Origin: Thaumarchaeota archaeon CSP1-1
Lineage (GTDB): Archaea > Thermoproteota > Nitrososphaeria > Nitrososphaerales > Nitrosopumilaceae
Direction: 5' to 3'
DNA: 32,000 nucleotides
Assembly: GCA_001443365.1 (NCBI GenBank)
Contig: LDXL01000006.1
Span: 87,387 to 119,386, forward strand
Part shown: piece after piece, positions 5,547-32,000 of the stretch
Layout: every line of letters starts with the position of its first letter
Numbering within the stretch: the stretch's first letter is position 1
Notes under the pieces: model-generated
Database searches by the model: none
Told to the model about the DNA's origin: nothing
The model's input: only the letters and a program-made list of their open reading frames with translations
Program-made: the position numbers and the translations under genes

Positions 5547-5603
5547 TTGGTTAGCTTTTAGCGAATGAGGGATAATAAATAAGAAAATTGCGTAATTGTA
5601 GTA

Positions 5604-5933
5604 TTGGTAAAGCAGATCAGCCTTGACTCATGGCAGATACACCATTTATCAGAATTACTTCAGAAGGGATCACTGGTCGTTGCAAAAACTAACACGCCAA
5701 TAATACTTTATCGCCAAACACTAGAAGAAGAAGACAGTTCTTACGAGGAGATAGTATGTACATTGACAAAGGATTATGTAATTGAGCAGCTGGTAATATC
5801 AGGTGGAGTGCTCCCACCCAGTTTTCATCAGCAATTGGTTTTTACCCTAAGTGAGTTTCCAGATAGACTGCTTAGAAAAAGTCGGGATCTATTCTTACAA
5901 ACCGTTGATCTGCTTGAAGAGAATCTGAAATAA
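5604..5933 (+). CDS. Hypothetical protein (109 aa)
   Basis: Intact ORF with a TTG start. A TATA-like ATAATAAATA (5572-5581) lies about 28 nt upstream. No recognisable motif. Confidence 0.5.
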   Translation: MVKQISLDSWQIHHLSELLQKGSLVVAKTNTPIILYRQTLEEEDSSYEEIVCTLTKDYVIEQLVISGGVLPPSFHQQLVFTLSEFPDRLLRKSRDLFLQTVDLLEENLK

Positions 5934-5942
5934 CCATAACAG

Positions 5943-5950
5943 AATATAAG
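5943..5950 (+). promoter_or_regulatory. TATA-like box upstream of sucC
   Basis: AATATAAG is centred about 27 nt upstream of the ATG at 5973. Confidence 0.45.
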
Positions 5951-5969
5951 GACCAAAACTTGGAATTTT

Positions 5970-7085
5970 TTGATGCGTCTACTAGAGTATCAAGCAAAGC
6001 AATTATTTTCTGAGTTTGGGATAAAGATCCCAAAAGGCTTAACCTCAAAAGATGTTGAACAAGGACGAAAGGACGCAGAAGAATTAGGATTTCCGTTTGT
6101 TATTAAATCACAAGTTCCTGTTGGTGGAAGAGGAAAGGTTGGAGCCATACAAAAGTGTCACAATCAAGATGAATTTAATCTAAAATATCCACAGATCTTA
6201 GAAATGTCTGTCAAAGGGGAAAAAACCAGAGCCATTTTACTTGAAAAGATGGCAGAAATCAAAAAGGAATTGTATCTATCGTTATTTTTGAATAGAGGTA
6301 AACGTTGCTACACCATTATTGCTTCCTCAGAAGGTGGAGTTGAAATTGAATCCGTAAAAAATCAAGTAATACGTGAGGTGGGATTAGGAGATGTTGATAA
6401 ACAAGTAGCAGAAGAAGTGGCTAAAGAAATTGGTCTTAAAGGAAATTCTGTGACTGAATTTGTAGACATGTTGCAAAAACTATCAAGGCTTACAATAGAA
6501 AAAGAGGCAGAGCTTGCAGAGATTAATCCCGTTGCTGTCTTAAATGATGGGTCGTTGATTGCCTTAGATGGCAAAGTCATCACGGATGATAACTCGAACT
6601 TTAGACATGCAGAGCTGGAAAAATTTCAAGAGCGCTCTGAGCTTGAAGAGAGGGCAGAAAAAAGTGGCTTTACATTAATTGAACTTGATGGAAACATTGC
6701 AGTTATTGGAAACGGTGCGGGTCTTGTAATGTCAACTCTCGATATGCTTTCAGATAATGGTGGAAAGGCTGCATGCTTTCTTGATGTTGGTGGTGGTGCA
6801 ACACCTGAATCAGTATATGAAGCGCTTACATTAATTAGCAAAATAAAAAAAGTAAAAGGAATTCTTGTCAATCTCTTTGGAGGAATAGTAAAAACAACAA
6901 CTGTTGCATCTGCATTTATCAAAGCTTATGATGAAAAGCTAATTGACAAACCAGTTTTTGCAAGATTGATGGGAGCTGAATCCGATAAATCAAAAGAGAT
7001 GCTAAAAGAAACTAAGACAAAACTTTTTGATTCTGTTGAAGCAGCAATCAATGCTGCAGTAATGGAGGTTAGAAAGAGTGGCTAA
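5970..7085 (+). CDS. sucC: Succinate-CoA ligase (ADP-forming) beta subunit
   Basis: MRLLEYQAKQLFSEFGI... ATP-grasp N-terminus and a C-terminal CoA-ligase domain (NLFGGIVKTT). The true start is probably the ATG at 5973 rather than the TTG at 5970. Confidence 0.9.
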   Translation: MMRLLEYQAKQLFSEFGIKIPKGLTSKDVEQGRKDAEELGFPFVIKSQVPVGGRGKVGAIQKCHNQDEFNLKYPQILEMSVKGEKTRAILLEKMAEIKKELYLSLFLNRGKRCYTIIASSEGGVEIESVKNQVIREVGLGDVDKQVAEEVAKEIGLKGNSVTEFVDMLQKLSRLTIEKEAELAEINPVAVLNDGSLIALDGKVITDDNSNFRHAELEKFQERSELEERAEKSGFTLIELDGNIAVIGNGAGLVMSTLDMLSDNGGKAACFLDVGGGATPESVYEALTLISKIKKVKGILVNLFGGIVKTTTVASAFIKAYDEKLIDKPVFARLMGAESDKSKEMLKETKTKLFDSVEAAINAAVMEVRKSG

Positions 7086-7992
7086 TATTTTTGAATTGTT
7101 ACAAGGAAAAGAAGGAGATGCGGATTACAACAAAAAACCAGTGATTGTTCAAGGAATCACTGGAAAGTTTGGTTCACTTCATACAAAACTTATGCAAGAA
7201 TATGGAACAAACATTGTAGCAGGTGTTACTCCAGGAAAAGGGGGTCAGAAGTTTGAAAACATTCCAATTTACAATTCAGTAAAGGAAGCAGTAGATGCAA
7301 CGGGTTCTAAGATTTCCATTCTGTTTGTGCCTGCCAAGTTTTTTTTGGGTGCAGCTAAGGAAGCAATTGAAGCAGGAATTAAACTTCTAGTTGCAATTCC
7401 AGAACATGTTCCAGTTAGAGACTCTCTAATTATGCTTGATCTTGCTAAAAAAAATGATGTAATAATTATTGGTCCAAATACGCCAGGAATAATGATTCCA
7501 GAAATAATCAAGATTGGAATAATGCCCGCGAGTCCTTTCAAGTCAGGTGACATTGCACTTCTTTCAAAGAGTGGCACTTTGATGTATGAAGTTGCAAACA
7601 ACCTAACAGAAGCTGGTTTTGGCCAAACAATTACTTTAGGAATTGGTGGAGACCCCATTAATGGCACTAGGCTGATAGATGCATTTGAAATGGTAAAAGA
7701 TACCCCAAATCTAAAAGGAATGGTAGTTGTCGGTGAAATTGGCGGAGATGCAGAAGAGGTTTTAGCTCAAAGAATAATCGACAGTAATTTCAAAAAACCA
7801 ATTGTGGCATACATTGCAGGTAGAGCTGCTCCAAAAGAAAAAAGAATGGGTCATGCGGGAGCAATAGTTTATGGAAACTATGGCTCAGCAGAGTCAAAGA
7901 TATCCATGTTCAACAAGGCTAACATTCCTGTGGCTAAAAGACCAGGTGAAGTTGCAATGCTATTAGCTGGTAAGTTCGAAAAATCCGATTAA
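7078..7992 (+). CDS. sucD: Succinate-CoA ligase alpha subunit
   Basis: 304 aa with VQGITGKFGSLHTKLM, SKSGTLMYE and the phosphohistidine loop MGHAGAIV. GTG start overlaps the sucC end by 8 nt. Confidence 0.92.
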   Translation: MANIFELLQGKEGDADYNKKPVIVQGITGKFGSLHTKLMQEYGTNIVAGVTPGKGGQKFENIPIYNSVKEAVDATGSKISILFVPAKFFLGAAKEAIEAGIKLLVAIPEHVPVRDSLIMLDLAKKNDVIIIGPNTPGIMIPEIIKIGIMPASPFKSGDIALLSKSGTLMYEVANNLTEAGFGQTITLGIGGDPINGTRLIDAFEMVKDTPNLKGMVVVGEIGGDAEEVLAQRIIDSNFKKPIVAYIAGRAAPKEKRMGHAGAIVYGNYGSAESKISMFNKANIPVAKRPGEVAMLLAGKFEKSD

Positions 7993-8191: not shown

Positions 8192-8242
8192 ATTTTATCT
8201 TAAACCTAAAGATACAAAAAGTTCCTATATTGTAAAAACATT

Positions 8243-8336
8243 GGACCGGTTGTCTAGTGGCTAGGATGACGCCCTCACACGGCGTAAAGATGTAAAAATC
8301 TCGCTAAGGTCATGGGTTCAAATCCCATCCGGTCCA
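8243..8336 (+). tRNA. tRNA-Val (anticodon CAC) with a ~21-nt intron in the variable-loop region
   Basis: Hand-folded cloverleaf. Acceptor GGACCGG/CCGGTCC. D arm GTCT-AGTGGCTA-GGAT. Anticodon arm ACGCC-CTCACAC-GGCGT. T arm ATGGG-TTCAAAT-CCCAT, discriminator A. There are 26 nt between the anticodon stem and the T stem instead of 5, so about 21 extra nt (roughly 8287-8307). Confidence 0.85.
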
Positions 8337-8387
8337 TTCAATTTTCAAAATGAAAGGTATACAAGATGTTAGTTTTAAAATGATTTT

Positions 8388-8674: not shown

Positions 8675-10447
8675 ATGAACAAATACGAACTTGGAACATG
8701 GAATCTCAAAGGGTTAGTAGCCAACCCAAAAAGTCATGCATTTGAAAAACAAATTCAATTAGTTGAAAGAAAAGCAAAACAGTTTGAAAAAATCAAATCA
8801 AAACTAAATCCAAAAATATCATCTAAAAAATTTATTGAAATTTTACATGAATTAGAGGAACTTGATGAAAAAATGAGTATAATTGGCGGATATGCGTCTC
8901 TAACTTATTCAGGAGATACGCAATCAGATGAAGCAACTTCTTTACTTACTCGTATGACAAAACTTGGTTCTGAGATTTCTAATCGTACATTGTTTTTTGA
9001 TTTGTGGTGGAAAAGAGGAATTGATGAAAAAAATGCAAAACGTCTAATCAAAGATTCTGGGGAACTCTCAGGATATCTAAAATACAAACGACTTGTTGCA
9101 AAATACTCCCTTAGTGAACCTGAAGAAAGAATAATTAATACACTTGATGTCACCGGAAGTACAGCACTAATCAAGCTTTATGATAAAATAACAAACGCCT
9201 TTGAATATGTTGTAAAGATTGAAGGTAAAAAAAGAAAGCTCACGCGCGAACAACTCTCTACATATGTAAGAAGTACAAAATCAAAAACACGAGAGAAAGC
9301 ATACAAAGAACTTCTATCTAAATTTTCAAAAAATAAAGGAGTGTTAGGTGAAATTTACCAAAATGTAGTTCTAAACTGGAAGGACGAAGGGATAGAAATC
9401 AGAGGGTTTGCTTCTCCAATATCAATTCGCAATATTGCAAACGACGTGGATGACAAAACAATAAACTCTCTTTTGACAGTATGTAAAAAAAATGCACCTA
9501 TTTTTCAGAATTTCTTTATACAAAAGGCAAAAATGCTTGGATTAAAAAAACTTCGAAGGTATGATCTATATGCGCCAGCTACTTCAAAAATTAAAGAAAA
9601 AAACTACCCATATGACAAATCTGTAAAGCTTGTTTTTGAATCATTAGAAAAATTCAGTCCGCAACTATCTACCTTTGCAAAAAAAGTATTCATAGAGAAA
9701 CATGTTGATTCCTCAATTAGACAAGGAAAACGGGATGGTGCATTTTGTAGTACTTTAGCACCAAAAATTACACCATATGTGTTGGTTAATTTTGCAGGGA
9801 AATCAAAGGATGTTTTTACAGTTGCACATGAGCTAGGTCATGCAGTACACAATATGGCAGCTTCAGATAAATCAATTCTAGTGTCTGATGCCCCACTACC
9901 TTTAGCAGAAACTGCATCTACTTTTTCTGAATTGCTTTTATATGATAATTTGTCTGATAAAATTTCAGCAGATGAGAAAAAAATTATGCTTTCTGAAAAA
10001 ATTGATGATTTGTATGCAACAATAATGAGACAGTCATTTTTTACATTATTTGAAATTGAAGTACATAAACAAATTGCTCAAAGTACCACAATTGAGGAAA
10101 TTTCAAAGGCATATTCGCGTAATCTAAAAGAGCAATTTGGAAATTCGGTTGATACATCTGATGATTTTGCATTAGAATGGAGTTGTATTCCACACTTTTT
10201 CCATACGCCTTTTTACTGCTATGCATATTCTTTTGGAAATCTGTTAGCTTTATCACTATTCCAACGATACAAAAAGGAGGGTCAAGATTTTGTTCCCTCA
10301 TACATTAACATTTTATCTGCTGGCGGATCAAAAAAACCAGAACTCTTACTAGATGAATATGGAATTGACATAGGTTCATCAAGATTTTGGCAGGATGGAT
10401 TTGATTATGTTCATGATCAAGTAAAACAGCTTTCTGCCTTGAACTAG
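8675..10447 (+). CDS. pepF: Oligoendopeptidase F (M3B metallopeptidase)
   Basis: 590 aa with the zinc site HELGHAVH and a downstream E (LAETAS). Length and layout match PepF. Confidence 0.9.
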   Translation: MNKYELGTWNLKGLVANPKSHAFEKQIQLVERKAKQFEKIKSKLNPKISSKKFIEILHELEELDEKMSIIGGYASLTYSGDTQSDEATSLLTRMTKLGSEISNRTLFFDLWWKRGIDEKNAKRLIKDSGELSGYLKYKRLVAKYSLSEPEERIINTLDVTGSTALIKLYDKITNAFEYVVKIEGKKRKLTREQLSTYVRSTKSKTREKAYKELLSKFSKNKGVLGEIYQNVVLNWKDEGIEIRGFASPISIRNIANDVDDKTINSLLTVCKKNAPIFQNFFIQKAKMLGLKKLRRYDLYAPATSKIKEKNYPYDKSVKLVFESLEKFSPQLSTFAKKVFIEKHVDSSIRQGKRDGAFCSTLAPKITPYVLVNFAGKSKDVFTVAHELGHAVHNMAASDKSILVSDAPLPLAETASTFSELLLYDNLSDKISADEKKIMLSEKIDDLYATIMRQSFFTLFEIEVHKQIAQSTTIEEISKAYSRNLKEQFGNSVDTSDDFALEWSCIPHFFHTPFYCYAYSFGNLLALSLFQRYKKEGQDFVPSYINILSAGGSKKPELLLDEYGIDIGSSRFWQDGFDYVHDQVKQLSALN

Positions 10448-13146: not shown

Positions 13147-13695
13147 TTGGATCTTGAATTTTTTCAATCAGAGGCTTTCGTTATTGGATACTATGTGTTG
13201 ACGGTTTCAGCCTCCCTGCTATTGATAAAAGAGACAAAAAAACGATGGCGTGATCTCATAGACGGCAAAAATTCTATGATATTTGCACCAATTTCATTTG
13301 GAATAATTCTTGCTTATGTTTTCCTTGCTTTTGATTTTTTTGAATCAATTCCAATTCTAAATTGGAGCTGGCTTGGCTACAACATTGCGTTTGGGCCATT
13401 TGCAGACCAAGGATTATGGGGAGTTTTACCGTTTATTCCACTATTGCTTTACATGTTTATTCACATAAACTATGTAGAAGAGCTTTATTTTAGAAAATCA
13501 AAAAAGATGGTAATAGTTTGGGCACTAGTCCATATAGCAATGGGAGTCAAAGTTTACATGGCAATTATGCTAATACCGATTGGATTTTTGTTCAAATATA
13601 TTTATGATAAAAAAGGATTAAACCACGCTTATGCTATGCACTTTGCAACAAACATTATGGTCGTAATTACTTTATTCCTTTCTTTTATCCCGTAA
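13147..13695 (+). CDS. CPBP family intramembrane glutamic endopeptidase (CAAX protease/Abi-like)
   Basis: Polytopic membrane protein carrying the three family motifs: EELYFR, a conserved His (LVHIAMG) and HFATN (HxxxN). TTG start. Confidence 0.72.
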   Translation: MDLEFFQSEAFVIGYYVLTVSASLLLIKETKKRWRDLIDGKNSMIFAPISFGIILAYVFLAFDFFESIPILNWSWLGYNIAFGPFADQGLWGVLPFIPLLLYMFIHINYVEELYFRKSKKMVIVWALVHIAMGVKVYMAIMLIPIGFLFKYIYDKKGLNHAYAMHFATNIMVVITLFLSFIP

Positions 13696-16149: not shown

Positions 16150-16511
16150 AAAATTCATTTCAATTTTGCTAAATTACTTTAGTAATCTACAATCCGTCAA
16201 TTAAATACAAAATTAAAAAAATATCTCATTTAACAGACCACTCAATGTGATTTTGACAATGAATGGTTATTATAGATCATATTCTCTTACCCCCAACAAT
16301 GACTAGAAAAATTTTAACCGTCTTATTCCTGACAACAATTTTAATGACTTCAGCTATTGCAGTTTCAATTGAATTGTTACCTCAAGCAGATGCTGCAAAA
16401 AGTGCCGGTACACCATCACAACAATACGGTTCAGCAACTAAGGATAAGGTTTGTGGAGACAAACTTTGTTCTGAGACAGGAGGAAAAACTAAAACACCAA
16501 GTGTTCCGAAA

Positions 16512-16559
16512 AAAGAAGTAACACCTAGTGAACCAAAAGAAGTGACTCCTAGTGAACCA
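16512..16559 (+). repeat. 24-nt tandem repeat x2 encoding a KEVTPSEP linker
   Basis: AAAGAAGTAACACCTAGTGAACCA / AAAGAAGTGACTCCTAGTGAACCA, with 3 mismatches. Confidence 0.9.
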
Positions 16560-16622
16560 GTTTCAGAAAAAGTGGCACCACCAATGTGGCAAAGTGCTTC
16601 AGGCACCATCAAATCAATACAA

Positions 16623-17279
16623 GACCCAGGCATAGGTCATGAGACACATCAACTTGCAATTATTTTGCCACCAAGTGACAAAGTCTACAAGGGATTGTTT
16701 TCATACGATGCTTCAGAACCAATTCAGCTGGCCCTTCATGGCCACTAGCTGATGGTGAAGATAATGGACAACCCATATGGACACCAGATGGTAAAACAAA
16801 GTTTGCATTAACCTTCATTGATCCACAATCTAGCATGGGAAGTTGGATTTTCACTGGCAATGCACTTGCAGTTCATACCATGAATAAAGATCCGTTTACT
16901 GTTAGCTATTCAGTAAGTTACATGGAAAATGAAATGTCTGATACTGTAATGACTGGAACCCTAGATTCAATGCTAGACCCAGGAATCGGTCATGAGACAC
17001 ATCAACTAGCAATCATACTGCCCCCAAGTGAAAAAACTTACAGTGGGGTCTTGACCTATTCAGCGTCAGAACCAATTCAGCTGGTTGCCCTTCATGGACC
17101 ACTAGCTGCTGGGGAAGACATGGGCCAAAAAATTTGGACTCCTGATGGTAAAACAAAGTTTGCATTAACCTTCATTGATGACGAGACAAACATGGGAACA
17201 TGGGCATTTGCAGGAAACGCTCTTGCAGTTCATACCATGAATGAAAATCAGTTTACCGTAAGTTATTCCGTTGTAGCAG
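16623..17279 (+). repeat. Tandem intragenic duplication, period ~353-357 nt (two domain copies)
   Basis: Copy 1 starts GACCCAGGCATAGGTCATGAGACACATCAAC at 16623. Copy 2 starts GACCCAGGAATCGGTCATGAGACACATCAAC at 16976. Long identical stretches occur, for example GATGGTAAAACAAAGTTTGCATTAACCTTCATTGAT. Confidence 0.9.
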
Positions 17280-17300
17280 GACAATAAAGAAAATTTCCCC

Positions 17301-17902: not shown

Positions 17903-18659
17903 TTGTTGAAGAAATTCCTGTTGTTGGTTTTTCCGCTAATAGGGCTTCCATGTGTATGGGCTGAAATATCAATCCAAAATGATCAGCAATATTTTGGAGA
18001 TGATGGTACTTTGCACATTGTAGGAGAAATTCAAAAATAATTTTAATGTGCCATTAAATCAAATTGAAGTCCAAGCCAAATTATTTTCAAATGGTATTTT
18101 GATTGATACTGTAAAAACGTCCCCAATGTTAAATACAATTATGCCTCAAATGAAAGGCCCGTTTGATATAATCATTTTAGGCAATGATGCAAAAGGCGTC
18201 GATAAATATTCTCTTGAAATAAGCTACAAATTGACTGAGCCTAAAAACCAAGTCATTGATATTACAAAATCAGACTTTTCAATAGATAATTCTAATAATT
18301 TGGTAATAACTGGAACTGTTGTAAATCATGGAGACATAACTGCAAATACGGTTGTTGTTGTAGCTACTCTATATGACAGAAATGGGAATGTTGTGACTGT
18401 TTCTAAAACACATGTAGAGCCAGATTATCTGAGAGCTGGCGATGAGGCCTTCTTTTTTGTATCAATTCCGGATAAAACACAATCAAACTCCGTTGTAGAC
18501 TATTCACTTGTGGCAGAGTCAGAAGAATATACTGCAGTTCCTGAATTTCCATTTGGCTCTATGATGCTACTTGTATCATCAGTTTCAGCATATGTAGGAC
18601 TGACAAGATATTCAAGTAGGATTATAGTAAACCATGTTTCTGCAACAAATCCAAAGTAG
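17903..18659 (+). pseudogene. Secreted two-domain FxLYD-like protein with a PEF-type C-terminal anchor, frame broken at an A5 run (18033-18037)
   Basis: An unlisted 45-codon ORF (17903-18040) encodes a signal peptide, LLKKFLLLVFPLIGLPCVWA/EISIQ...GTLHIVGEIQK*. Removing one A gives GEIQNNFNVPLNQIEV, joining ORF 18048-18659. The second domain (LVITGTVVNHGDITANTVVVVATLYDRNGNVV) aligns without a gap to the joined first domain (LHIVGEIQNNFNVPLNQIEVQAKLFSNGILI). The C-terminus is PEFPFG followed by a TM helix and basic residues. Confidence 0.65.
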
Positions 18660-19494: not shown

Positions 19495-19508
19495 GAAAAA
19501 TTTTTCCT
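19493..19508. terminator. Perfect 16-bp palindrome AGGAAAAATTTTTCCT spanning both stop codons of convergent genes, possible bidirectional terminator
   Basis: Self-complementary when checked base by base. It presents a T5 run on either strand and includes the TAG of the plus-strand gene (19492-19494) and the TAG of the minus-strand gene (19507-19509). Confidence 0.4.
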
Positions 19509-20664
19509 AATCTAACTTTAGTATGCCCATTCTAACTAAGTGCTCAACGCCATCAAAGAATACTTTGTCACTGATTCTTTTTTCGGACCATAATAGGGCT
19601 CTTGTCTTAAACCAGTTTGGCATTTTTTCTATGTTGGATTCGCTTACTGGATCTTTTAAATTAAATGGAATATAACTTAACAGAGATTGAAATGATTTTT
19701 CTTTATCAGCAATTGGATTAAGATATTGATTCCAATCAATCTCAGTTGGTTTTGAAAGTTCTCGGATCATAAACCCATTTGGAAATTCCAGAGAGAGTTT
19801 AATTTCCTCAGAAGTAGAATTTGTTACAGGATTGACTAAATGCTTGAGAGTATTTTCATAAGCTTTATCATTAATTGTATTTGTTATCCACATTTTTGTC
19901 AAATCCCGTTGAAGATTAATTAATTCAGAATTAGAATTAGTTATTGCGTAATTGATCAAAGTATTACCAATAGCTGGTTCATAAGGTGCTATCATCACAT
20001 AGTTCTTAGTTGAGGAATCAGCTCGAATTATTATTTTAAATTCATTACATTTATCATAATCAAAATTTGTTCCTATACAATTATCATATTGATCCTGTTT
20101 TTCATGAATTTTCATTTTAATATCGGATTTAGAGAAGCCTTTGTAAGATAATACAAAGTGAGAAAGTTCGTGAGATAATATCCAAGAAGGTAATGTCGTT
20201 TCGTAACTAGAAGAGAAATCAGAACAATCACACATCATTAATAGATGGTTAATTGTTCTATCGTTACCTGAATGCACATAAATTCCATCAAGGTTATTAG
20301 GATGTAAAGTTGATTTTCCTAAAGCTTGATCAAAAATTAGTATCAACAAGTTTACATTCTCAGATTTTTGGAAATCCTTGAATTGTGATTCTGAAATACA
20401 ATTCACTGAATAATTATTATTCTCTAATTGGTAAAGCTCAAAGTATTTGGATGTAAGGCTAGCGTAAACTTTATCCATATTATCTTTAGGACCACAAGTA
20501 TCTTTTTTGATATAGAGTAATTGCCATTCTACTGAAGAATCTTCTGCTGCATATGATTTGGTTAAGGTAGGTCCAAGAATTAGGCCCAAAGTAATCATTA
20601 TACTAAAGATTACGTAAATTTTTTCTCCAGGAACAATATTCTTTATTTTATTGACTTTAATCAT
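19507..20664 (-). CDS. Secreted or membrane-anchored protein with an HExxH motif (putative zinc metallopeptidase)
   Basis: N-terminal TM/signal segment (IYVIFSIMITLGLILGPTL). HELSH in LPSWILSHELSHFVL (DNA 20158-20172). The start overlaps the upstream gene by 8 nt. The fold family was not recognised. Confidence 0.55.
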   Translation of the reverse strand: MIKVNKIKNIVPGEKIYVIFSIMITLGLILGPTLTKSYAAEDSSVEWQLLYIKKDTCGPKDNMDKVYASLTSKYFELYQLENNNYSVNCISESQFKDFQKSENVNLLILIFDQALGKSTLHPNNLDGIYVHSGNDRTINHLLMMCDCSDFSSSYETTLPSWILSHELSHFVLSYKGFSKSDIKMKIHEKQDQYDNCIGTNFDYDKCNEFKIIIRADSSTKNYVMIAPYEPAIGNTLINYAITNSNSELINLQRDLTKMWITNTINDKAYENTLKHLVNPVTNSTSEEIKLSLEFPNGFMIRELSKPTEIDWNQYLNPIADKEKSFQSLLSYIPFNLKDPVSESNIEKMPNWFKTRALLWSEKRISDKVFFDGVEHLVRMGILKLD

Positions 20665-21598
20665 CTGAAAACACCAACACTAATTCTGGAATGTGTGACT
20701 GAGCCTCTCTTGATGCAATGTTTATTTGACCTTCTGAATTTTCGTCACTTTTCATTATGATCCATCCGAAATTTTCTTCTGAAGAAAGATAATCTAGAAT
20801 ATCGTCAGTAACATCAAACTTTACCCAGTAACCTTCTACTTGATTTGAAATCCATATTGAATCTGTTGGGTTTTGGTCAAATTTTCCTCCGTTCCACTGA
20901 TTTCTACAGTCATCCGCCTCGGTAGGACAACTCCAAGTTACCCCATCGCTAGGATTCAATAGATTGCTAACTGGAGTACTTATTCCATTACCTTCCTGCC
21001 AGTCAGTTTCAAAGCTGTGTATATTGATAAGCTGCCCGTCTCCCCAATTTTGATTATTACTTTCTATATACAGTTTGAGAGTTGCAGATTCTAGAGTTTT
21101 GCCAGTAGCTACGTTTTGAATATCATCTTGATTGAAAGCTATCAGAGCCCTGTTGTTAGTTGGTCCAGTACCCATAATTCGTAGAACTTGGTTTGAGCCT
21201 TCGTTACTGTTTTGAACACCTTCTCTAATGAAACTATCTTTTTCAGCAAACAATGTAACTTTATTTCCAGATACCTCGGGCTCTTTTACTGGGAGATTCT
21301 TTACAAGTTTAAGATTGGTGAATTCCTCATTTTTTAAAACTTTTTGTGTTTTAGATAACTCCTCTTCCAGTTGAACAAACATGTGATTAGATGTTTCTTT
21401 GGCATCTTTGAAATTACACAAACCATTCTCACAAATGTTAGTTGGAATTGGGGTTACTTCTGTATATGAAAAAATTTCTTGTATTTCTTCATCTAGTATG
21501 AAAAATGATATCGCAGAAAATGTAATGCCCGCAATTACAAGTAAACTTAAAAGAGTTCTTCCGAGAAGCTCGTCTTTAATAATATTATTCGTTTTCAT
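20657..21598 (-). CDS. Secreted protein with a DNRLRE/CBM96-like beta-sandwich domain
   Basis: N-terminal TM anchor. The C-terminal ~200 aa follow the DNRLRE-domain pattern as I recall it: KDSFIREG..N.NEGSNQVLRI......NRALIAFNQ...ATLKLY...W.EG..GVTW....FDVTD...INIASREA...PELVLVF. The start ATG overlaps the S8 gene stop (ATGA). Confidence 0.55.
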   Translation of the reverse strand: MKTNNIIKDELLGRTLLSLLVIAGITFSAISFFILDEEIQEIFSYTEVTPIPTNICENGLCNFKDAKETSNHMFVQLEEELSKTQKVLKNEEFTNLKLVKNLPVKEPEVSGNKVTLFAEKDSFIREGVQNSNEGSNQVLRIMGTGPTNNRALIAFNQDDIQNVATGKTLESATLKLYIESNNQNWGDGQLINIHSFETDWQEGNGISTPVSNLLNPSDGVTWSCPTEADDCRNQWNGGKFDQNPTDSIWISNQVEGYWVKFDVTDDILDYLSSEENFGWIIMKSDENSEGQINIASREAQSHIPELVLVFSDD

Positions 21599-23748
21599 TT
21601 CATAGCCTCCGAGTCATCTATTAGGAAAACTGCACTTGCAGTTCCATAACCCATTGCATAATCATATTCATTTTGTAATGAAAACAGACCAGGTTCTGTA
21701 TTCTGTTGAATTTTAGTCAATAACTGTTCTGGAGACATATTTGGATTATTCTCAAGAATTAATGCAGCCAAGCCAGCAACATAAGGAGTAGTAGCTGATG
21801 TTCCATAGAATGGCTTGCCGTCTAGAGCTAAGGTTGTTACACCATCAGGCCCTACGACATGAGGAGCTAATTTGCCATTATTTGTGGGGCCTTGTGAGCT
21901 ATATGGTTCTAGTATTCCATCTAGGTGGTTTACCGCTCCTACTACTATTGCGCCATTTGCATCTGCTGGAACTGACACACTACTTTGGGTAACAGGATAT
22001 TCAAGTTCATCATTAACAGTAAAAATTTCCAAAGTTGCATGAGGTCTATTGCTAGGTGATATCATATCCCCAGAATACAAGACTCCAAGAGAATAGATAC
22101 CTTCAGTATCTGGAAGATGATAAATATATTCAAAGGGATTGTCTGAACTCTTTTCTTGCTTGTTTGCAGAGAAATCGACTATTTGTCCTAGCGGATTAAC
22201 AAGCACAAGCTCTAAATCAGCAACATCATCTAGACCCACATCCCACATCATATGAGCGATAATTGGCTTTTCTTCTGCGATTCGATCTTCTGTTACTGTA
22301 ATCGACAAGCCTTCATCGGTATTTGAAAAATCATGCCAATTATTGAGGCTGGAATCCACAAAATTTCCTTCCCAATGCTTATTGCCAAAGTTTCCTGCTG
22401 GTACAACAAAAACAATGCCATTTTCAACGGCTTCCTCAATCTTCTTTGTGACATGACTTGTACCATCAGTTGGGAAGTTAGGCCAACCTGCAGACATTGC
22501 TATAATATCTACATTTTTTGATATGGCTTCATCCACAGCTGCTGCAAATTCAATGTCTGATTCCATGGAATACAAAAATAGTTCAACATCTGGAGCAACG
22601 TCAGCTATAATTTCTGCAACTGCGGTTCCATGCAAGGCTTCATCTCCATTTCCTTGTATTGGCAGATATCCTATCCCTTGTCTGAACGATTTGACTTCAA
22701 CGATATTATCTGAAATTTTTTGATTATTTGTAAATGACAAGTCCAACACAGCTACTTTAATCCCTTTACCAGTAATCCCTGCATATTGTGCCAAATCAGC
22801 ATTCATGAAATACACTCCTTCTGACAATGATTCCTCAAATTGTACTGCTGGGAATGGGGGCCTAATGTTTTCAATACCTTGAATTGACCTGAGTTTTGGA
22901 AGGTCACTTAGCTTAATTGTTAGCTGTACCTGTTTGTCATTTTTTGCGTTAATATTACCTAGTGAAGTTAGTTTGTCTAAAACTGCAGCGTCTGTATTTG
23001 TTAATGTTACTACAACTTTTGTTTTCCCATCTTTAAAGTCAAGTCCTAATTTTTTGGCATCTCTTTTAGGATCTTCACTTTTTAAAAGAGCCGAAATTTT
23101 TGAATCAATTTTATGTTTTGAAAGCTCCTCATGAGAAGCCATCTCTTGTTTAATTTTTAATTTAGTTTCTTTTAGTTCTTGTTTGAGTGTTTTTTTGTAC
23201 TCTTTATCATAATCTAGGTTTTCATTTAATTTCTTGATAACATCTTTGATATCAGAAACGAGAGATTTGAGTTTTTGTTTATCTTCCTCATTTAAGATCT
23301 TTTTTAAATCATTGATCTCTTTTTTAATTTCTTTAAGAGCTTGCAGCTTTTCTTTTAATTCATTTTTATTTCGAGTTTCTTCTCTCTGTTTTTTGATTTT
23401 CTCTATTATAGCTCTTTTCTCTTCATCATCATCGTCATTCGATTGACAGGCACCTTTTGTATCACCATGAGCCAAGTGTGCTTCGGTAGCATTTACTGAT
23501 ACCAAAATTTGCTGGAAATTGTTGGGGTTTCCTGGAGGAATGTGACATATTGTAATTTTTTTATCATCATCTTTCTCATCATCTTTCTCATCATCTTTCT
23601 CATCATCTTTCTCATCATCTTTCTCATCATCTTTCTCATCATCTGCAACAGCAAGTGCCGGGTTAAAATTTGCAAATGTGCCCCAGCTTAATAATAACAC
23701 TGATAGAATCACTACCAATGCTCTAGAATTAGCATACGCTGAAACCAT
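21595..23748 (-). CDS. Secreted S8 (subtilisin-family) serine protease with acidic repeat, Cys/His module and coiled-coil N-terminal extension
   Basis: Catalytic triad contexts are VAVLDLSF (Asp), HGTAVAEIIA (His) and GTSATTPYVAGLAAL (Ser), with the oxyanion Asn in VVPAGNFG. A ~150-aa insert lies between Asn and Ser. The N-terminus carries a signal peptide, then (DDEK)x6, ICHIPPGNP...HLAHGD..GAC, a K/E-rich coiled coil and an I9-like propeptide. Confidence 0.9.
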   Translation of the reverse strand: MVSAYANSRALVVILSVLLLSWGTFANFNPALAVADDEKDDEKDDEKDDEKDDEKDDEKDDDKKITICHIPPGNPNNFQQILVSVNATEAHLAHGDTKGACQSNDDDDEEKRAIIEKIKKQREETRNKNELKEKLQALKEIKKEINDLKKILNEEDKQKLKSLVSDIKDVIKKLNENLDYDKEYKKTLKQELKETKLKIKQEMASHEELSKHKIDSKISALLKSEDPKRDAKKLGLDFKDGKTKVVVTLTNTDAAVLDKLTSLGNINAKNDKQVQLTIKLSDLPKLRSIQGIENIRPPFPAVQFEESLSEGVYFMNADLAQYAGITGKGIKVAVLDLSFTNNQKISDNIVEVKSFRQGIGYLPIQGNGDEALHGTAVAEIIADVAPDVELFLYSMESDIEFAAAVDEAISKNVDIIAMSAGWPNFPTDGTSHVTKKIEEAVENGIVFVVPAGNFGNKHWEGNFVDSSLNNWHDFSNTDEGLSITVTEDRIAEEKPIIAHMMWDVGLDDVADLELVLVNPLGQIVDFSANKQEKSSDNPFEYIYHLPDTEGIYSLGVLYSGDMISPSNRPHATLEIFTVNDELEYPVTQSSVSVPADANGAIVVGAVNHLDGILEPYSSQGPTNNGKLAPHVVGPDGVTTLALDGKPFYGTSATTPYVAGLAALILENNPNMSPEQLLTKIQQNTEPGLFSLQNEYDYAMGYGTASAVFLIDDSEAMK
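23566..23637 (-). repeat. Six identical tandem 12-nt units (plus strand ATCATCTTTCTC) encoding (DDEK)6
   Basis: Exact repeats counted at 23566, 23578, 23590, 23602, 23614 and 23626, with partial units on both sides. Confidence 0.95.
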
Positions 23749-23794
23749 TGTTTTTACCTGAATAATTTTACTCCTGAAAACTAGATGACTCTGT

Positions 23795-23814
23795 GTTTGT
23801 AATTGATTACAAAC
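23795..23814. promoter_or_regulatory. Candidate operator: perfect 9+9 bp inverted repeat GTTTGTAAT-TG-ATTACAAAC
   Basis: Located in the 170-bp divergent region between the protease operon start (23748) and the histidine kinase start (23919). Arms verified as exact reverse complements. Confidence 0.45.
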
Positions 23815-23918
23815 TTTTTCTTATATCCCAAAAATACGTTCAAAATATCAGCAATGAAACTAGTATATGGCCTATCAGAGGCAGCTGGAAAAAAATTGTA
23901 CCATGATGGAGGGATTTC

Positions 23919-25448
23919 ATGAGGCTTAAAACAAAGTTTTCTTTAGAAGTACTTCTTTTAATTTCTCTAATTGGGATGGTATCTATTATTGCAGTTTTAA
24001 ATACAAAACAAGTTCAGGATAGTTTTCTTGATTTGAGTATACAGACATTACCAACTTGGGATGCATTAAAGGACATGAGATTAGCCAACTCTCTGATTTT
24101 ATCATCTACTTTGGAAGTATTGATTTTACAAGATGCGATAAACAATCAAGAAGATGAATTTGGAGTATCTGATTATGAAGAACAAATAGAAAATGAAATT
24201 TTTGAAATAGAAACAGCAAAATCATTATTCAGTGAATCTTTTACTCGATATTCTATCCTTATGGAAGAAAATTTCCCAGAATCCAATATTTATGTAGACG
24301 ATATTTCCAAAAATTGGAATGATTTGGTAATAACGTCTAACAAAATGATTAGATTTAATATTAATGGAAATAATGCAAGGGAAGTTTTAGAATTAAAAAA
24401 TGATTTTGAAAATAGTGTGCAATTACTTAATCAAAATATATTTTCTGCAAATAGTTTTATTGAGCCTCAAGTGAAAAGCAGACAAGCAGTTGTGGAATCA
24501 CTTGTTGATAACACCACTACACAGATCTTAATTGTATTAAATATTTTCATTGGAGCATCATTGGCCTTCAAATTTTTTATCACAAAATCAATTTCACGGC
24601 CACTAATCAAACTAAGAAAAACAGCTCATAAAATTGCAGAAGGAGAATTTGTTAAAACAGAAATGAAAGGGGATGATGAAATTTCTGATCTTGGTAAAGA
24701 TATCGATATGATGTCAACTGAACTTCAAAAACTAAACAGGGCACTAGTAACATCTGAAAGACTGTCATCTATTGGTAGTTTATCGAGTCGTTTGGCACAT
24801 GATCTCAGAAATCCACTATCTGTCATCAAAAACTCTATGGAAATATTGAAATTCAGATTAAATGATAACATGGATGAAAACATTAACCATCAAATTGCAA
24901 TGGTTGGAAGAGCAGTTTCTCGCATGTCACACCAAATTGAGGATGTACTTGATTTTGTGAATATAGCCTCATTGAAATTAGAAAATAGTTCACTCATTAC
25001 AGTAATAGAATCTGCTATTCTTAGTACCGACATACCAAAATCTGTTAAGATAAATTTGCCAAAAAATTCTGTTACGATAAGGTGTGATCCATATAGAATG
25101 GAAGTAGTTATCAGTAATTTATTGAAAAATGCCTCACAAGCAATGGAAGGTAAAGGAGAGATTTCAATCAGAGTTTTAGACCAAAAAGAGGATGTTTTGA
25201 TAGAGATTGAAGATCAGGGTCAAGGGATTCCTCAAGAAAACATGGATAAAATATTTGAGCCCTTATTTACTACAAAACAGTCAGGGACGGGTTTGGGATT
25301 AGCAAGCTGTATCAGCATTGTAGAAAAACATGGAGGCAGTATTTCTGTGAAAAATAATCCTACAGTCTTCACTGTACAATTGCCTAAGGTCCCTAAAAAT
25401 GTAAAACTTGAAGAAAAACAAATAGAAAAGCAAATTCCTAACGAATAA
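23919..25448 (+). CDS. Sensor histidine kinase (two TM helices, extracytoplasmic sensor, HAMP, HisKA, HATPase_c)
   Basis: TM1 (residues ~10-27), a ~165-aa outside domain and TM2 (ILIVLNIFIGASLAFKFFI). HAMP (SRPLIKLRKTAHKIAEGEF). H-box SRLAHDLRNPL. N-box LLKNASQA. G-boxes DQGQGIP and GTGLGL. Confidence 0.9.
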   Translation: MRLKTKFSLEVLLLISLIGMVSIIAVLNTKQVQDSFLDLSIQTLPTWDALKDMRLANSLILSSTLEVLILQDAINNQEDEFGVSDYEEQIENEIFEIETAKSLFSESFTRYSILMEENFPESNIYVDDISKNWNDLVITSNKMIRFNINGNNAREVLELKNDFENSVQLLNQNIFSANSFIEPQVKSRQAVVESLVDNTTTQILIVLNIFIGASLAFKFFITKSISRPLIKLRKTAHKIAEGEFVKTEMKGDDEISDLGKDIDMMSTELQKLNRALVTSERLSSIGSLSSRLAHDLRNPLSVIKNSMEILKFRLNDNMDENINHQIAMVGRAVSRMSHQIEDVLDFVNIASLKLENSSLITVIESAILSTDIPKSVKINLPKNSVTIRCDPYRMEVVISNLLKNASQAMEGKGEISIRVLDQKEDVLIEIEDQGQGIPQENMDKIFEPLFTTKQSGTGLGLASCISIVEKHGGSISVKNNPTVFTVQLPKVPKNVKLEEKQIEKQIPNE

Positions 25449-25519: not shown

Positions 25520-26734
25520 ATGGAGAACCAAGAGTTGATCTTGCCTGAAGAAGAAGAGGTCATGCCACTTCTAGCGGATTATGGATTAACAGAAGAAGAG
25601 GCACGAGTGTATGTTGGGGTATTAAGGATTGGCACAGGCAAAGTAAGTGAGATTAGCCATTTTACAAATACTGATAGAGTTAAGGGATACAAAATACTTG
25701 AAAATTTGAGAAGTGAAGGATATGTAACTTCAACTCTTTCATCACCAATTTTATTTTCTGCAAATGATCCTAAAACGACATTTGATACTATCTTAACGAA
25801 GAAAAAATCTGGAATTCAAAGATTAGAAAAAAATCAAGCTCGTTTAATTGAAAATCTAGAAAAGCTAAAAGGACATAGTGTAGTGAGTAACCTTCCTAAA
25901 CTCTCAGTAATTTCAGGAAGAGATAATATCTACAATGAAATAAAAAAAATTATTGATGAGACAAAAGATGAGATGTATTTAGTTACATCAACTTCTGATC
26001 TCATTAGAATGTATTATACAGATATTCCTGCTGCCATAAAAAAAGCACTCAAACGTAAAGTAGAAATTAAATTAATGACGGAGTTTGAAGTTTCTGATAA
26101 AACCGATTGTGTTAAAAATCTAGGATTAAATTATTTTAAAGTTGCAAAATTACCTTCCCAAGGCAGAATAGTTTGCAATTCCTCTCAGATTATCATGTCT
26201 GGCTATACCTCAAAGACCTCAAGAATTCATGCAAGCGATGATTCTGCATTAGTAACTAATTCAGATGAAATTACTAGCAACATGCAAAGCTTATGCAAGT
26301 TTATGTGGAAAATGGGAGGAGAAGTAAAAATTGATAAAAAAGGCACTGTTGAAGGAGAATCTCCTAGAATTAAAACGGGCGTACAAAAAAATGCTACAGC
26401 ATTAGTTGTCGATGATGATCCAGATACAGTAGAGATGTTTTCAGATTATTTAGAAAATAAAGGAGTTAATGTAATAGGTAAGGCAAAGGATGGAAAAGAA
26501 GGTTTTGAACTATACAAGAAATTAAAACCAGATGTAATATTTTTGGATGTAATTATGCCAAATTATGATGGATTTTATACGTTAAAGAAGATTAGAGAAA
26601 TAGATGCTGATGCAAAGATTATCATGGTGACTGCTGATTTTTCTCCAACAACTAAGAAAAAGCTAAAGGAATTAAAAGCAACTGATATTATTTACAAGCC
26701 CTACGATGGAAGGGCAATTGATAGAGTAATTTAG
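25520..26734 (+). CDS. Hybrid regulator: N-terminal TrmB-type winged HTH, TrmB-like middle domain and C-terminal receiver (REC) domain
   Basis: HTH: GLTEEEARVYVGVLRIGTGKVSEISHFTNTDRVKGYKILENLRSEGYV. Middle: VISGRDNIYNEIKKIIDETKDEMYLVTS...RKVEIKLMTE. REC: VVDDDPD, phospho-acceptor context VIFLDVIMP, MVTAD and IYKP. Confidence 0.85.
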   Translation: MENQELILPEEEEVMPLLADYGLTEEEARVYVGVLRIGTGKVSEISHFTNTDRVKGYKILENLRSEGYVTSTLSSPILFSANDPKTTFDTILTKKKSGIQRLEKNQARLIENLEKLKGHSVVSNLPKLSVISGRDNIYNEIKKIIDETKDEMYLVTSTSDLIRMYYTDIPAAIKKALKRKVEIKLMTEFEVSDKTDCVKNLGLNYFKVAKLPSQGRIVCNSSQIIMSGYTSKTSRIHASDDSALVTNSDEITSNMQSLCKFMWKMGGEVKIDKKGTVEGESPRIKTGVQKNATALVVDDDPDTVEMFSDYLENKGVNVIGKAKDGKEGFELYKKLKPDVIFLDVIMPNYDGFYTLKKIREIDADAKIIMVTADFSPTTKKKLKELKATDIIYKPYDGRAIDRVI

Positions 26735-26777: not shown

Positions 26778-27416
26778 TTAGGATTTAGAGCCTAATGAGG
26801 ATACTATAACATCAATAGCATCAGATAATTTTTTGATATCATGCTCTCTGCCTAGGCGATGTATTTCTTCTTTGATAATTTTTAGGGCGGTAGTATTATT
26901 TACTATATCAAAAACATTCGTTCCGCGATAGGGAGTTTCTTTGAGATTCTGACGCACTTCTTCTATTTGGAATTCTTGTTGTTCTAGCTCTTTTTCTGCT
27001 AATGTGCACTCGTACTCTAACTTTTGAAGCTTTGATTTTGTATTTCGCTTTCCTAGTAATAATTGATCAAGGATAGTTGTAACTGATTTGATATCCATTG
27101 TATTAAGAGAATTTTTATCAAGATTAATTTTTTCTAATTTTTGAGATTGTAACATTGCAATTTCTTGGTCAAATCTTTTATGTAATTCCTGTATATGATT
27201 AATTTGTTCTTGATGTTTATCGATTTTCATATTAACATATTTTATGTATTGACCTGTGTTTCCAGCTGCATCTAATGCCCAACGAATTGCATTCTTTGCA
27301 GCCAAATAACCTGATTTTGTTTCTTTTTCTCTTTGTTGTAATCGATCAGTAAACGTTACCGATTCTGCATCATTTAAATGAAATCCTAATGTTACAGATC
27401 TGTCTCCAACATCCAT
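26778..27416 (-). CDS. Coiled-coil hypothetical protein (212 aa as listed, possibly longer at the N-terminus)
   Basis: Long heptad-like K/E/Q-rich stretches. The frame stays open 37 codons upstream of the ATG without any ATG/GTG/TTG (see findings). Confidence 0.55.
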   Translation of the reverse strand: MDVGDRSVTLGFHLNDAESVTFTDRLQQREKETKSGYLAAKNAIRWALDAAGNTGQYIKYVNMKIDKHQEQINHIQELHKRFDQEIAMLQSQKLEKINLDKNSLNTMDIKSVTTILDQLLLGKRNTKSKLQKLEYECTLAEKELEQQEFQIEEVRQNLKETPYRGTNVFDIVNNTTALKIIKEEIHRLGREHDIKKLSDAIDVIVSSLGSKS

Positions 27417-27552: not shown

Positions 27553-27572
27553 GTATGTAAATTATTACAAAC
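27553..27572. promoter_or_regulatory. Second, imperfect copy of the inverted-repeat motif (GTATGTAAA-TT-ATTACAAAC)
   Basis: 17 of 20 positions are identical to 23795-23814, counted by hand. Lies in the divergent gap between genes 26778-27416 (minus) and 27651-27998 (plus), overlapping a minus-strand TATA-like TAATAATTTA. Confidence 0.35.
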
Positions 27573-27650: not shown

Positions 27651-27998
27651 ATGAGAATCAAGAGAAATTTGTTCATGACAGAAGTTACCGAATATCGAAT
27701 ACAGCAAATTGTTGATAATGGTCAGATAGTACAAATGACTCTAGCAGAAGATGTCCTCACAGAACCAGTCTCTCAAAAACAAATGATAATGGATTCTGTG
27801 GCAAAGAAATTGGATCCTGAAATAAAAGAACAGGTAACGCCCTTATTAGAGGCAATACTTCAAGCCCAACCTACAATCCAGATAAAGAGTTACCAACATA
27901 CTTCAATCACCATTACGATGCCAAAAAGCAGATACGAACGAATGGGTAGGCCACAAGTTGGCGAAAAACTGGAAATCAATATTAGAAAAATTTCCTAA
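27651..27998 (+). CDS. Hypothetical protein (115 aa)
   Basis: Intact ORF. An alternative start is the ATG at 27675 (MTEVTEY...). No motif recognised. Confidence 0.5.
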
Positions 27999-30161: not shown

Positions 30162-30599
30162 ATGTTACGAAGTATATACTATAGTGAGGTCAAAAAATTG
30201 CCTATTAACATATTGATAGCAGAAGATGAAGAAGACATTGCTGAGCAATACCGTATGGGATTTGAAGATAGAGGCCATAAGGTGAAAGTTACCCACAATG
30301 GCGTTGAATGTATCAATGAATATCGTAGAGCTCGTCAATCACTTGGTGAAAAAGAACCTCTAATTTATGATGTAATAATAATTGATCATAACATGCCCTT
30401 AAAGGATGGAGCAATGTTGGCTGAAGAAATTCGAGAAATAAATCCCGAACAGATTATAGTCTTTGCAACTGCTTATGGAAACCAGCTGATAATGGGTTTA
30501 GAAAAATTTGAAGATGTGGATATTGTTACTAAACCTCTATCCATAACAAATTTAATACAAATGGTAGAAGATAGGCACTACAAGACAGTTGAAGCTTAA
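30162..30599 (+). CDS. Stand-alone response regulator receiver protein (CheY-like)
   Basis: ILIAEDEED acidic pocket, phospho-acceptor context VIIIDHNMPLKDG, FATAYG and VTKP. No output domain. Confidence 0.85.
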   Translation: MLRSIYYSEVKKLPINILIAEDEEDIAEQYRMGFEDRGHKVKVTHNGVECINEYRRARQSLGEKEPLIYDVIIIDHNMPLKDGAMLAEEIREINPEQIIVFATAYGNQLIMGLEKFEDVDIVTKPLSITNLIQMVEDRHYKTVEA

Positions 30600-31953: not shown

Positions 31954-32000
31954 TTGCTAAATTAATACAACTCGTATGATTTTATCGATTAGACAGTCGC

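Follow-up and report, generated by a model that had tools for sequence, protein, structure and literature searches.

Do three overlapping genes for exported proteins and the two-component signaling pair that diverges from them belong together, and if so, what would such a set of genes do? The window (the whole stretch of DNA analyzed) comprises 32,000 nt of contig LDXL01000006.1 of Thaumarchaeota archaeon CSP1-1. In it, geneA (an S8 subtilase), geneB (a CBM96/DNRLRE protein) and geneC (a zincin-like HExxH protein) lie divergently from a histidine kinase gene and a response regulator gene (Table 1). We favor, with moderate confidence, a reading in which these five genes represent a two-component-controlled cell-surface protein module, conserved across the Nitrosopumilaceae, with a role in surface processing or turnover.

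The three genes overlap as a first-pass annotation, made from the sequence alone, had placed them, with coordinates and both junctions read directly. GeneA and geneB share an ATGA (4-nt overlap) at 21595–21598, geneB and geneC overlap by 8 nt (ATGATTAA) at 20657–20664, and at each junction there is a Shine-Dalgarno-like GGAGG or GGTG 7–9 nt 5' of the start of the next gene. Profile scans agree with the identities given there (S8 subtilase, CBM96/DNRLRE protein and HELSH protein), those for geneC at sub-threshold scores, and the view of the trio as exported or anchored proteins holds as well: all three have a hydrophobic N-terminal segment by sequence, and AlphaFold2 (AF2) models have helices there in geneB and geneC. 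The inverted repeat reported between the two divergent units is likewise seen, in the 170-nt intergenic region between geneA and the kinase gene. An Rfam scan of the window found two tRNAs only, neither of them in the region of the five genes.

In the clade of the window, geneA, geneB and geneC are divergent from the kinase/regulator pair and always occur together with it (nine species-level genomes plus metagenomic loci). The decisive loci are those with other contexts, where the S8 orthologues are 42–59% identical. In Nitrosarchaeum limnium SFB1 (L052), the regulator gene is followed by a geneC-like gene on one strand, divergent from the kinase, S8 and CBM96 genes in that order, and the flanks are unrelated; the geneC-like protein has 31% identity to geneC (profile E=7e-89), and its gene overlaps the regulator stop codon. 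At L055 and L058, the kinase, regulator and geneC-like genes form one unit divergent from the S8 and CBM96 genes, with flanks that differ again in each, and in Nitrosopumilus sp. b3 an S8 gene followed by a CBM96 gene is found at a contig end. GeneC is in the kinase/regulator operon and not the protease operon in three of the four arrangements (SFB1, L055 and L058). In a neighbor-joining tree of geneC, from which L058 was left out, the relatives in L052 and L055 are sister to the window geneC clade, apart from the scattered paralogues.

Because the five genes are kept in four differently arranged, non-syntenic contexts, we regard them as a functional module and not as an inherited gene order. 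Judged by gene order, they behave as one module with a reshuffled internal order, and in the window lineage the three exported-protein genes are joined in one translationally coupled operon. What the first-pass annotation had linked from the window alone, the five genes together with the palindrome described below, co-occurs in all four of these contexts. The module is absent at S8 homologues of about 50% identity (L053 and L056) and at a bacterial homologue of 34% identity (L057), which bounds it to one S8 orthologue group. A metagenome scan via the regulator returned close relatives from the same syntenic clade only.

The palindrome, with arms GTTTGTAAT and ATTACAAAC, precedes both divergent units, at distances of 46 nt from the geneA ATG and 104 nt from the kinase ATG. 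Allowing up to three mismatches, chance alone would give 0.11 copies in the window, which contains two. Every orthologous intergenic region of the window clade has both arms unchanged, with variable spacer and flanks, and the arms are exact also in SFB1 (L052 8836–8856) and L058 (9652–9672), where the spacer is 3 nt; the divergent region of L055 has a version with one mismatch per arm. The exact arms of the window clade, SFB1 and L058 are kept although geneA falls to 42–47% identity and the regulator to 50–58%. The distance by which the palindrome precedes the S8 start is also held, at 38–46 nt, between the window (46 nt) and SFB1 (39 nt, from the signal-peptide-encoding start). The SFB1 kinase gene is upstream of the S8 gene and co-directional with it, and for this reason the palindrome there is not a kinase promoter element. 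In SFB1 and Nitrosopumilus sp. b3 the S8–CBM96 gap is about 140 nt and the CBM96 gene reads as a transcription unit of its own; in both, a second site precedes the CBM96 start by 36 nt. With a variable spacer allowed, there are 20 sites in 723 kb of retrieved DNA, against 0–1 per shuffle, and all 20 are intergenic within this gene set. The simplest reading is that the palindrome is the operator of the co-conserved regulator, which would bind it as a winged-helix dimer.

Promoter-like elements are seen on either side of the palindrome. Between it and the geneA start is an A/T-rich box (GTAAAATTATTC on the geneA strand), with a similar box, AATAATTATTCAAG, at the same relative position in SFB1, which is a candidate TATA element; on the kinase side, a TTATAT that is partly conserved in orthologous intergenic regions is the candidate TATA box of the kinase/regulator transcript. 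A degenerate copy of the palindrome is found next to the regulator gene, between a leftwards gene for a coiled-coil protein and a rightwards gene for a 115-aa protein, neither of them assigned to a family. The position of this copy is conserved in L001, L004, L005, L008, L021, L023, L028, L040 and L043, and the two genes beside it may belong to the same regulon.

Table 1. Coordinates of the five genes and associated sequence elements in the window.
Feature	Coordinates	Strand	Description
geneC	19507-20664	minus	385-aa open reading frame (ORF)
geneB	20657-21598	minus	313-aa ORF
geneA	21595-23748	minus	717-aa ORF
Tandem repeat encoding (DDEK)n	23560-23644	minus	12-nt x 7.1; Tandem Repeats Finder score 163; inside geneA
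A/T-rich box GTAAAATTATTC (geneA strand)	23760-23771	minus	candidate TATA element, between palindrome and geneA start
Palindrome GTTTGTAAT-tg-ATTACAAAC	23795-23814	no strand	operator-like; perfect inverted repeat, 9-N2-9
TTATAT	23821-23826	no strand	candidate TATA box of the kinase/regulator transcript; 6 nt from palindrome, kinase side
Histidine kinase gene	23919-25448	plus	509 aa; divergent from geneA-geneB-geneC
Response regulator gene	25520-26734	plus	404 aa; divergent from geneA-geneB-geneC
Degenerate palindrome copy GTATGTAAATTATTACAAAC	27553-27572	no strand	between 26778-27416 (minus) and 27651-27998 (plus)

The kinase is organized as a transmembrane (TM) segment, an extracytoplasmic domain of about 170 aa that resembles a four-helix bundle (4HB), a second TM segment, and HAMP, HisKA and HATPase domains (Pfam: 4HB_MCP_1 1e-3, HAMP 6.6e-9, HisKA 9e-10 and HATPase_c 2e-24), and its H-box, SRLAHDLRNPL, includes the phospho-acceptor His. 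The regulator has an N-terminal TrmB winged helix (PF01978, 2.6e-12, 46.8 bits; cut-off 25.6), a TrmB-effector-like middle region and a C-terminal receiver (Response_reg, 1.6e-24); the match to Regulator_TrmB (PF11495, 4e-4) is at 20.1 bits, below the cut-off of 22.2, and is also weak in SFB1. The receiver pocket (DDD, D343, T371 and K393) is present, and VVDDDP, FLDVIMP, MVTAD and YKPY are invariant among the orthologues, which are 87–98% identical. The key residues of both kinase and receiver are intact. Stand-alone receiver-domain genes are also found near the module, at 30162–30599 in the window and at 13420–13803 in L055; the latter directly follows the CBM96 gene, its product is 56% identical to the receiver domain of the regulator, and it may be an additional phosphorelay partner.

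GeneA matches Peptidase_S8 (PF00082) at 1.7e-24 and 87.1 bits (cut-off 21.8), and its VAVLD, HGTAVA, AGNFGN and GTSATTPYVAG segments align with D32, H64, N155 and S221 of subtilisin BPN', such that the catalytic triad reads as intact. The predicted protein has a signal peptide, an acidic DDEK repeat, a coiled-coil region, a propeptide-like segment, and a catalytic domain with an insertion of about 130 aa between the oxyanion Asn and the Ser. The propeptide-like segment (aa ~245–310, immediately before the catalytic domain) is beta-alpha-beta-like as judged by eye, and there is no Pfam match to the Inhibitor_I9 propeptide in geneA.

Orthologues of geneA are 42–99% identical across the Nitrosopumilaceae and differ in the N-terminal stalk, which is a variable, swappable cassette. 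The (DDEK)n repeat is shared by the window and L038; in L001, a locus related at 92%, it is swapped for RTX-like GGxGxD repeats and two Ig-like repeats to give a protein of 1109 aa. The orthologues in L004, L005 and L008 are 1009–1162 aa long, and PF00353 is present in some homologues. The L001 sequence also bears on the start codon: the counterpart of the geneA ATG runs into a stop two codons on and the L001 ORF begins at a TTG equivalent to window codon 11, for which reason translation of geneA may in fact begin with the codon-11 TTG (23716–23748 region) and not with the annotated ATG. L004 and L028 have an additional NHL-repeat gene between kinase and subtilase.

GeneB matches CBM96 (PF24517) at 51.2 bits (cut-off 26) and the NCBIfam DNRLRE model (NF033679) at 55.5 bits (cut-off 34), and some orthologues also match the disaggregatase repeat PF06848. 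In the AF2 model an N-terminal TM anchor (helix 4–36) is followed by a disordered, low-confidence linker and a beta-sandwich with a predicted local distance difference test score (pLDDT) of about 80–93. The best Foldseek matches are a chondroitin-sulfate-binding module (8wab, E=1.2e-7, TM-score 0.74) and, further down, an alginate-binding CBM96 (7vbo, E=2.3e-5, TM-score 0.69), and the modeled domain has the CBM96 beta-sandwich fold. It thus shares both sequence family and fold with known members such as 8wab and the CBM96 of alginate lyase Dp0100 (7vbo), but, unlike the CBM96 modules of carbohydrate-active enzymes, geneB is stand-alone, TM-anchored and partnered with proteases. The DNRLRE domain was first reported in Methanosarcina surface proteins and is found in disaggregatase and S-layer proteins (PMC2447325; PMC9971899).

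GeneC is the least familiar of the three. Its best Pfam match, Peptidase_M91 around HELSH, scores 15.5–16.9 bits, below the cut-off of 25; an NCBIfam scan gave no match, and profile searches of the PDB with two alignments (A1 and A4) gave no relevant match. Pfam scans of ten long distant relatives of the N-terminal domain found no model that covers it, and scans of each member of alignment A4 found sub-threshold zincin families only. HELSH had been described in the first-pass annotation as the sole recognizable feature of this protein; the motif is there, but it is part of a conserved zincin-like domain, and the C-terminus has a conserved motif of its own. The domain (about aa 45–235) includes H165-E-L-S-H169, H187 and Cys 57, 89, 196 and 206, a pattern of HExxH-x17-H, with the third His at +18, and two Cys pairs. 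Among 104 representatives (pairwise identity ≤50%), C57, C89 and C206 are conserved in 100%, C196 in 99%, W161 in 96%, H165 in 94%, E166 in 93%, H169 in 97% and H187 in 95%; HExxH substitutions amount to 6/104 at H165 and 7/104 at E166, and Met 225 is 78% conserved. HExxH is invariant in a separate alignment of 26 sequences.

The AF2 model of geneC (pLDDT 73.5; predicted template modeling score 0.73) has a helix at 12–34 and then a mixed sheet leading to the HELSH helix (159–174) and a helix with H187. Foldseek found nothing in the PDB below E=1e-3 (best E=0.05, TM-score ≤0.38), and the non-significant matches are to the metzincin catalytic domains of MMP-16, fragilysin, MMP-13 and ADAMTS4. 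The metzincin signature HExxHxxGxxH/D is absent from geneC, which reads HELSHFVLSYKG and, counted from the second His, lacks both a Gly at +3 and a His or Asp at +6. As modeled, geneC would share with zincin metallopeptidases the HExxH helix after a mixed beta-sheet and the conserved third His on the next helix; it differs from metzincins, M91, M78, M48 and SprT in having no significant sequence or structure match to them, and from known zincins in its third-ligand candidate His at +18, its two disulfide-type Cys pairs and its thaumarchaeal C-terminal fusion. It is probably an extracellular, disulfide-stabilized zincin-like domain that lacks a curated family, and is presumed to be catalytic.

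A word-indexed search found 185 geneC homologues, all unnamed, and an exhaustive profile search found 3150 representative clusters at 50% identity (1183 below 1e-10), some of them via the C-terminal motif alone. In the latter search the N-terminal ~200 residues recur in proteins of many different architectures; in giant proteins the final ~40 residues are found by themselves and in repeated form. The annotated names of the distant relatives and of the motif-only proteins are nothing but "hypothetical protein".

The C-terminus of geneC (PNWFKTRALLWSEKRISDKVFFDGVEHLVRMGILKL; 19507–19620) is a copy, by motif hidden Markov model, of a two-helix motif of about 36 aa with the pattern W[IF]K..A.WW....I.D..F..GI.[YW]L...G.I. 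GeneC has a weak internal copy (aa ~246–277) and this strong C-terminal one (aa ~349–385). The motif terminates many large thaumarchaeal secreted proteins, often in tandem, including BNR-repeat giants, an S8 paralogue, and proteins of 4046 and 4762 aa (e.g. L024 7787–10267, L022 1366–4590, L033 2913–6287 and L053 10001–12085). Neither Pfam nor NCBIfam has a model for it, and it may serve to anchor proteins to the surface or the S-layer.

Distant geneC paralogues (27–34% identity; L010–L031 and L033–L036) are common in Nitrosopumilaceae, Nitrosotalea and Nitrosotenuis, and one is in a bin labeled Aenigmatarchaeota. They often adjoin large BNR-repeat surface proteins that share the C-terminal motif (e.g. 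L033 1812–2909 with 2913–6287; L024 10268–11371), and other neighbors are a class III nucleotidyl-cyclase-like gene and YncE-type beta-propeller proteins. In close relatives a paralogue of about 481 aa is located about 400 nt 3' of the alcohol-dehydrogenase-like gene that in the window is the last one (L021 8393–9844, L023 9971–11422 and L038 16831–18162), and the window probably ends just short of its own copy, beyond position 32000. A second geneC paralogue or second operon within the window was considered and rejected: the genes at 5970–7085 and 7078–7992, with their 8-nt overlap, encode succinyl-CoA synthetase subunits, and the ORF at 2343–5546 is a tRNA synthetase.

We propose that the kinase would sense an extracytoplasmic cue and phosphorylate the regulator, a TrmB-receiver protein, a dimer of which would bind the palindrome some 40 nt 5' of the subtilase start; in the window lineage the same site adjoins the divergent kinase/regulator promoter, which would provide for autoregulation. 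Binding would switch transcription of the exported proteins (S8 and CBM96, and here geneC also), by activation or repression. The subtilase would be secreted, borne on a stalk of variable type (acidic or Ca-binding); the CBM96 protein would be membrane-tethered and bind an anionic glycan (S-layer glycans or an extracellular polymer), and the zincin-like protein would be held at the surface via its C-terminal helical hairpins and function as a zinc metallopeptidase. Most probably these proteins would serve to process or turn over, in a regulated manner, the (glyco)proteins of the surface or the extracellular matrix, and not to feed on protein in bulk; a surface role is suggested by the anchors, by the motif shared with large surface proteins, and by the presence of DNRLRE in S-layer proteins and disaggregatase.

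Several points weigh against this proposal. Synteny is complete in the window clade between about 8.7 kb and about 30 kb (a 20-kb neighborhood), so the loci of that clade add no independent evidence, and conservation of the trio within it is uninformative. Binding of the regulator to the palindrome is deduced from co-conservation and position, and the palindrome is, to our knowledge, unlike published TrmB-family sites. One could suppose that the genes are neighbors through inherited order only and that the palindrome is unrelated to them, as a terminator or structural repeat; we disfavor this as very improbable, as the same five genes are kept in four arrangements with unrelated flanks, the palindrome keeps its exact arms in different genera and in every case precedes S8 or CBM96, and the genes overlap by 4 and 8 nt. 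A further point is that geneC lacks a significant match to any peptidase family or structure and could be non-catalytic. It would then be a surface protein with a structural or metal-binding HExxH helix, acting as adaptor or inhibitor of the subtilase and leaving S8 as the only proteolytic component, to which the few members with a substituted HExxH would conform. This has a slim chance of being correct: H165, E166, H169 and H187, each 93–97% conserved, and the two Cys pairs make up a pattern that is usual for active zincins outside the cell, and the modeled order of sheet, HExxH helix and third-His helix agrees with the zincin fold.

The co-operonic location of geneC with kinase and regulator in three of the four arrangements also counts against the proposed role, since it fits a sensing accessory at least as well as an effector. 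In such a signal-processing loop geneC, possibly with the subtilase, would make, mature or destroy the kinase ligand, or else serve as a co-sensor, with the protease operon as part of the feedback. The geneC orthologue directly 3' of the regulator in SFB1, L055 and L058 and the extracytoplasmic 4HB-type sensor domain of the kinase are in its favor, and protease-dependent signal maturation beside a two-component system has a bacterial precedent in fsr/gelE-sprE of Enterococcus. However, no candidate pro-peptide gene is conserved in the module, geneC has moved into the effector operon in the window lineage, and geneC paralogues elsewhere pair with large surface proteins and not with kinases; we consider such a loop quite unlikely. 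Nutritional (mixotrophic) proteolysis is an unlikely alternative, in which external protein or peptide would induce the genes and the released peptides and amino acids would be imported and deaminated for ammonia oxidation or assimilation. Such a reading has reportedly been made of thaumarchaeal S08A proteases of deep-sea lineages, and passages of a study of sponge symbionts interpret theirs in the same way (PMC6790972). It would account for two putative endopeptidases of different catalytic classes in one regulated unit, and an M3 oligopeptidase is encoded at 8675–10447 in the window and an SBP_bac_5 peptide-binding protein and an M24 peptidase near the SFB1 locus. Yet the conserved module lacks a peptide transporter, and the peptidase and transporter genes in the flanks are not kept from one context to the next; geneB is membrane-anchored and the geneC motif reads as a surface tether (although geneA itself has no recognized anchor), and a glycan-binding CBM96 partner with an anchoring motif suits work on the envelope better.

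Other features of the window lie outside these genes. A 203-aa protein (18048–18659) has an FxLYD domain (3e-12) and a C-terminal VPEFPFG followed by a TM segment, a tail that scores weakly, at 18.9 bits (cut-off 25), against the thaumarchaeal PEFG-CTERM sorting signal. Two adjacent small ORFs (16263–16748 and 16835–17287) of no known family share a 49-aa segment with 73% identity, which reads as a local duplication. The tRNA-Val(CAC) at 8242–8337 is 96 nt long, and this length suggests an archaeal tRNA intron.

If the proposal is correct, the new elements are the regulatory circuit and the uncurated geneC family, and the known parts are S8 and the CBM96 domain, the latter in an unusual role. 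Very few archaeal two-component systems have known targets, and this circuit is unusually well defined for one; with a sensor, a regulator, a 9-N2-3-9 operator and targets, the module would constitute a complete bench-testable hypothesis in globally important nitrifiers. The analysis also flags two widespread uncharacterized thaumarchaeal modules, the zincin-like domain and the ~36-aa motif, which probably shape the surface of the cell, through which ammonia and other solutes have to move. A more ambitious claim would be that this is an undescribed archaeal circuit of DNA-binding regulator, operator and surface-processing machine, with geneC founding a large zinc-metallopeptidase family with a new anchoring repeat, and, in its boldest version, with geneC and the subtilase maturing or destroying the ligand of the kinase; we view this as speculative and unlikely. 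Were the boldest version true, ammonia-oxidizing archaea would have a protease-dependent loop for sensing other cells or the state of the envelope.

A literature search found no paper describing the five-gene module, in keeping with the remark of the first-pass annotation that it did not recognize the partnership as a described system. The coupling of the trio and its link to the two-component system also stand from that interpretation, but the idea that secreted proteolysis is surprising physiology for an ammonia oxidizer does not: S08A subtilases are in most thaumarchaeotes, typically in two copies and mostly membrane-anchored, according to the passages concerned in PMC6790972. The protease by itself is ordinary for these archaea. 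The subtilases of 'Ca. Nitrosospongia ianthellae' and other ammonia-oxidizing archaea treated in those passages are of the same peptidase family, and in the same organisms, as geneA; they are placed adjacent to serpins in sponge symbionts, and the passages describe no linkage to a two-component system, a CBM96 protein or an HExxH protein (PMC6790972).

The organization of the module is reminiscent of bacterial loci in functional terms only. Two-component control of exoproteases is established for fsr and gelE-sprE in Enterococcus faecalis and for DegS-DegU and aprE in Bacillus. The former resembles the window in having a kinase and a DNA-binding regulator beside the zinc-metalloprotease/serine-protease operon that they control, with the regulator acting at repeats immediately 5' of the protease promoter. 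In contrast to fsr and DegSU, the window locus has archaeal promoter machinery and a regulator in which the output domain, placed before the receiver, is a TrmB-type winged helix and not of the LytTR or NarL type; in contrast to gelE-sprE, it has an extra CBM96 partner, and its metalloprotease-like geneC is unrelated to the M4 gelatinase. No fsrB- or fsrD-like peptide-signal genes were found in the window, L052, L055 or L058.

Closer relatives of the regulatory pair are found in methanogens. LtrK-LtrR of Methanococcoides burtonii is said to be an archaeal two-component system with a regulator in which a winged helix-turn-helix (wHTH) is joined to a receiver (REC). Most archaeal response regulators lack a DNA-binding output; in a 2018 census only 1 of 224 thaumarchaeal regulators had a helix-turn-helix, and haloarchaea and Methanosarcina were the sole groups for which wHTH-REC types were reported (PMC5847659). 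Archaeal two-component systems were still called poorly understood in 2026 (PMC13464002), and the window regulator belongs to the very small number of archaeal response regulators for which DNA binding is predicted. FilI with FilR1 and FilR2 of Methanosaeta harundinacea has the same succession of winged helix, middle domain and C-terminal receiver, and FilR1 (wHTH-DUF1724-REC) is the closest characterized architecture (PMC5847659). Compared with FilR1 and LtrR, the middle region of the window regulator is TrmB-effector-like and not DUF1724, and the lineage is Thaumarchaeota; compared with the Fil and Ltr systems as a whole, the predicted targets are surface proteases and not methanogenesis or cold-response genes, and both the operator and the targets are readable here through comparative genomics.

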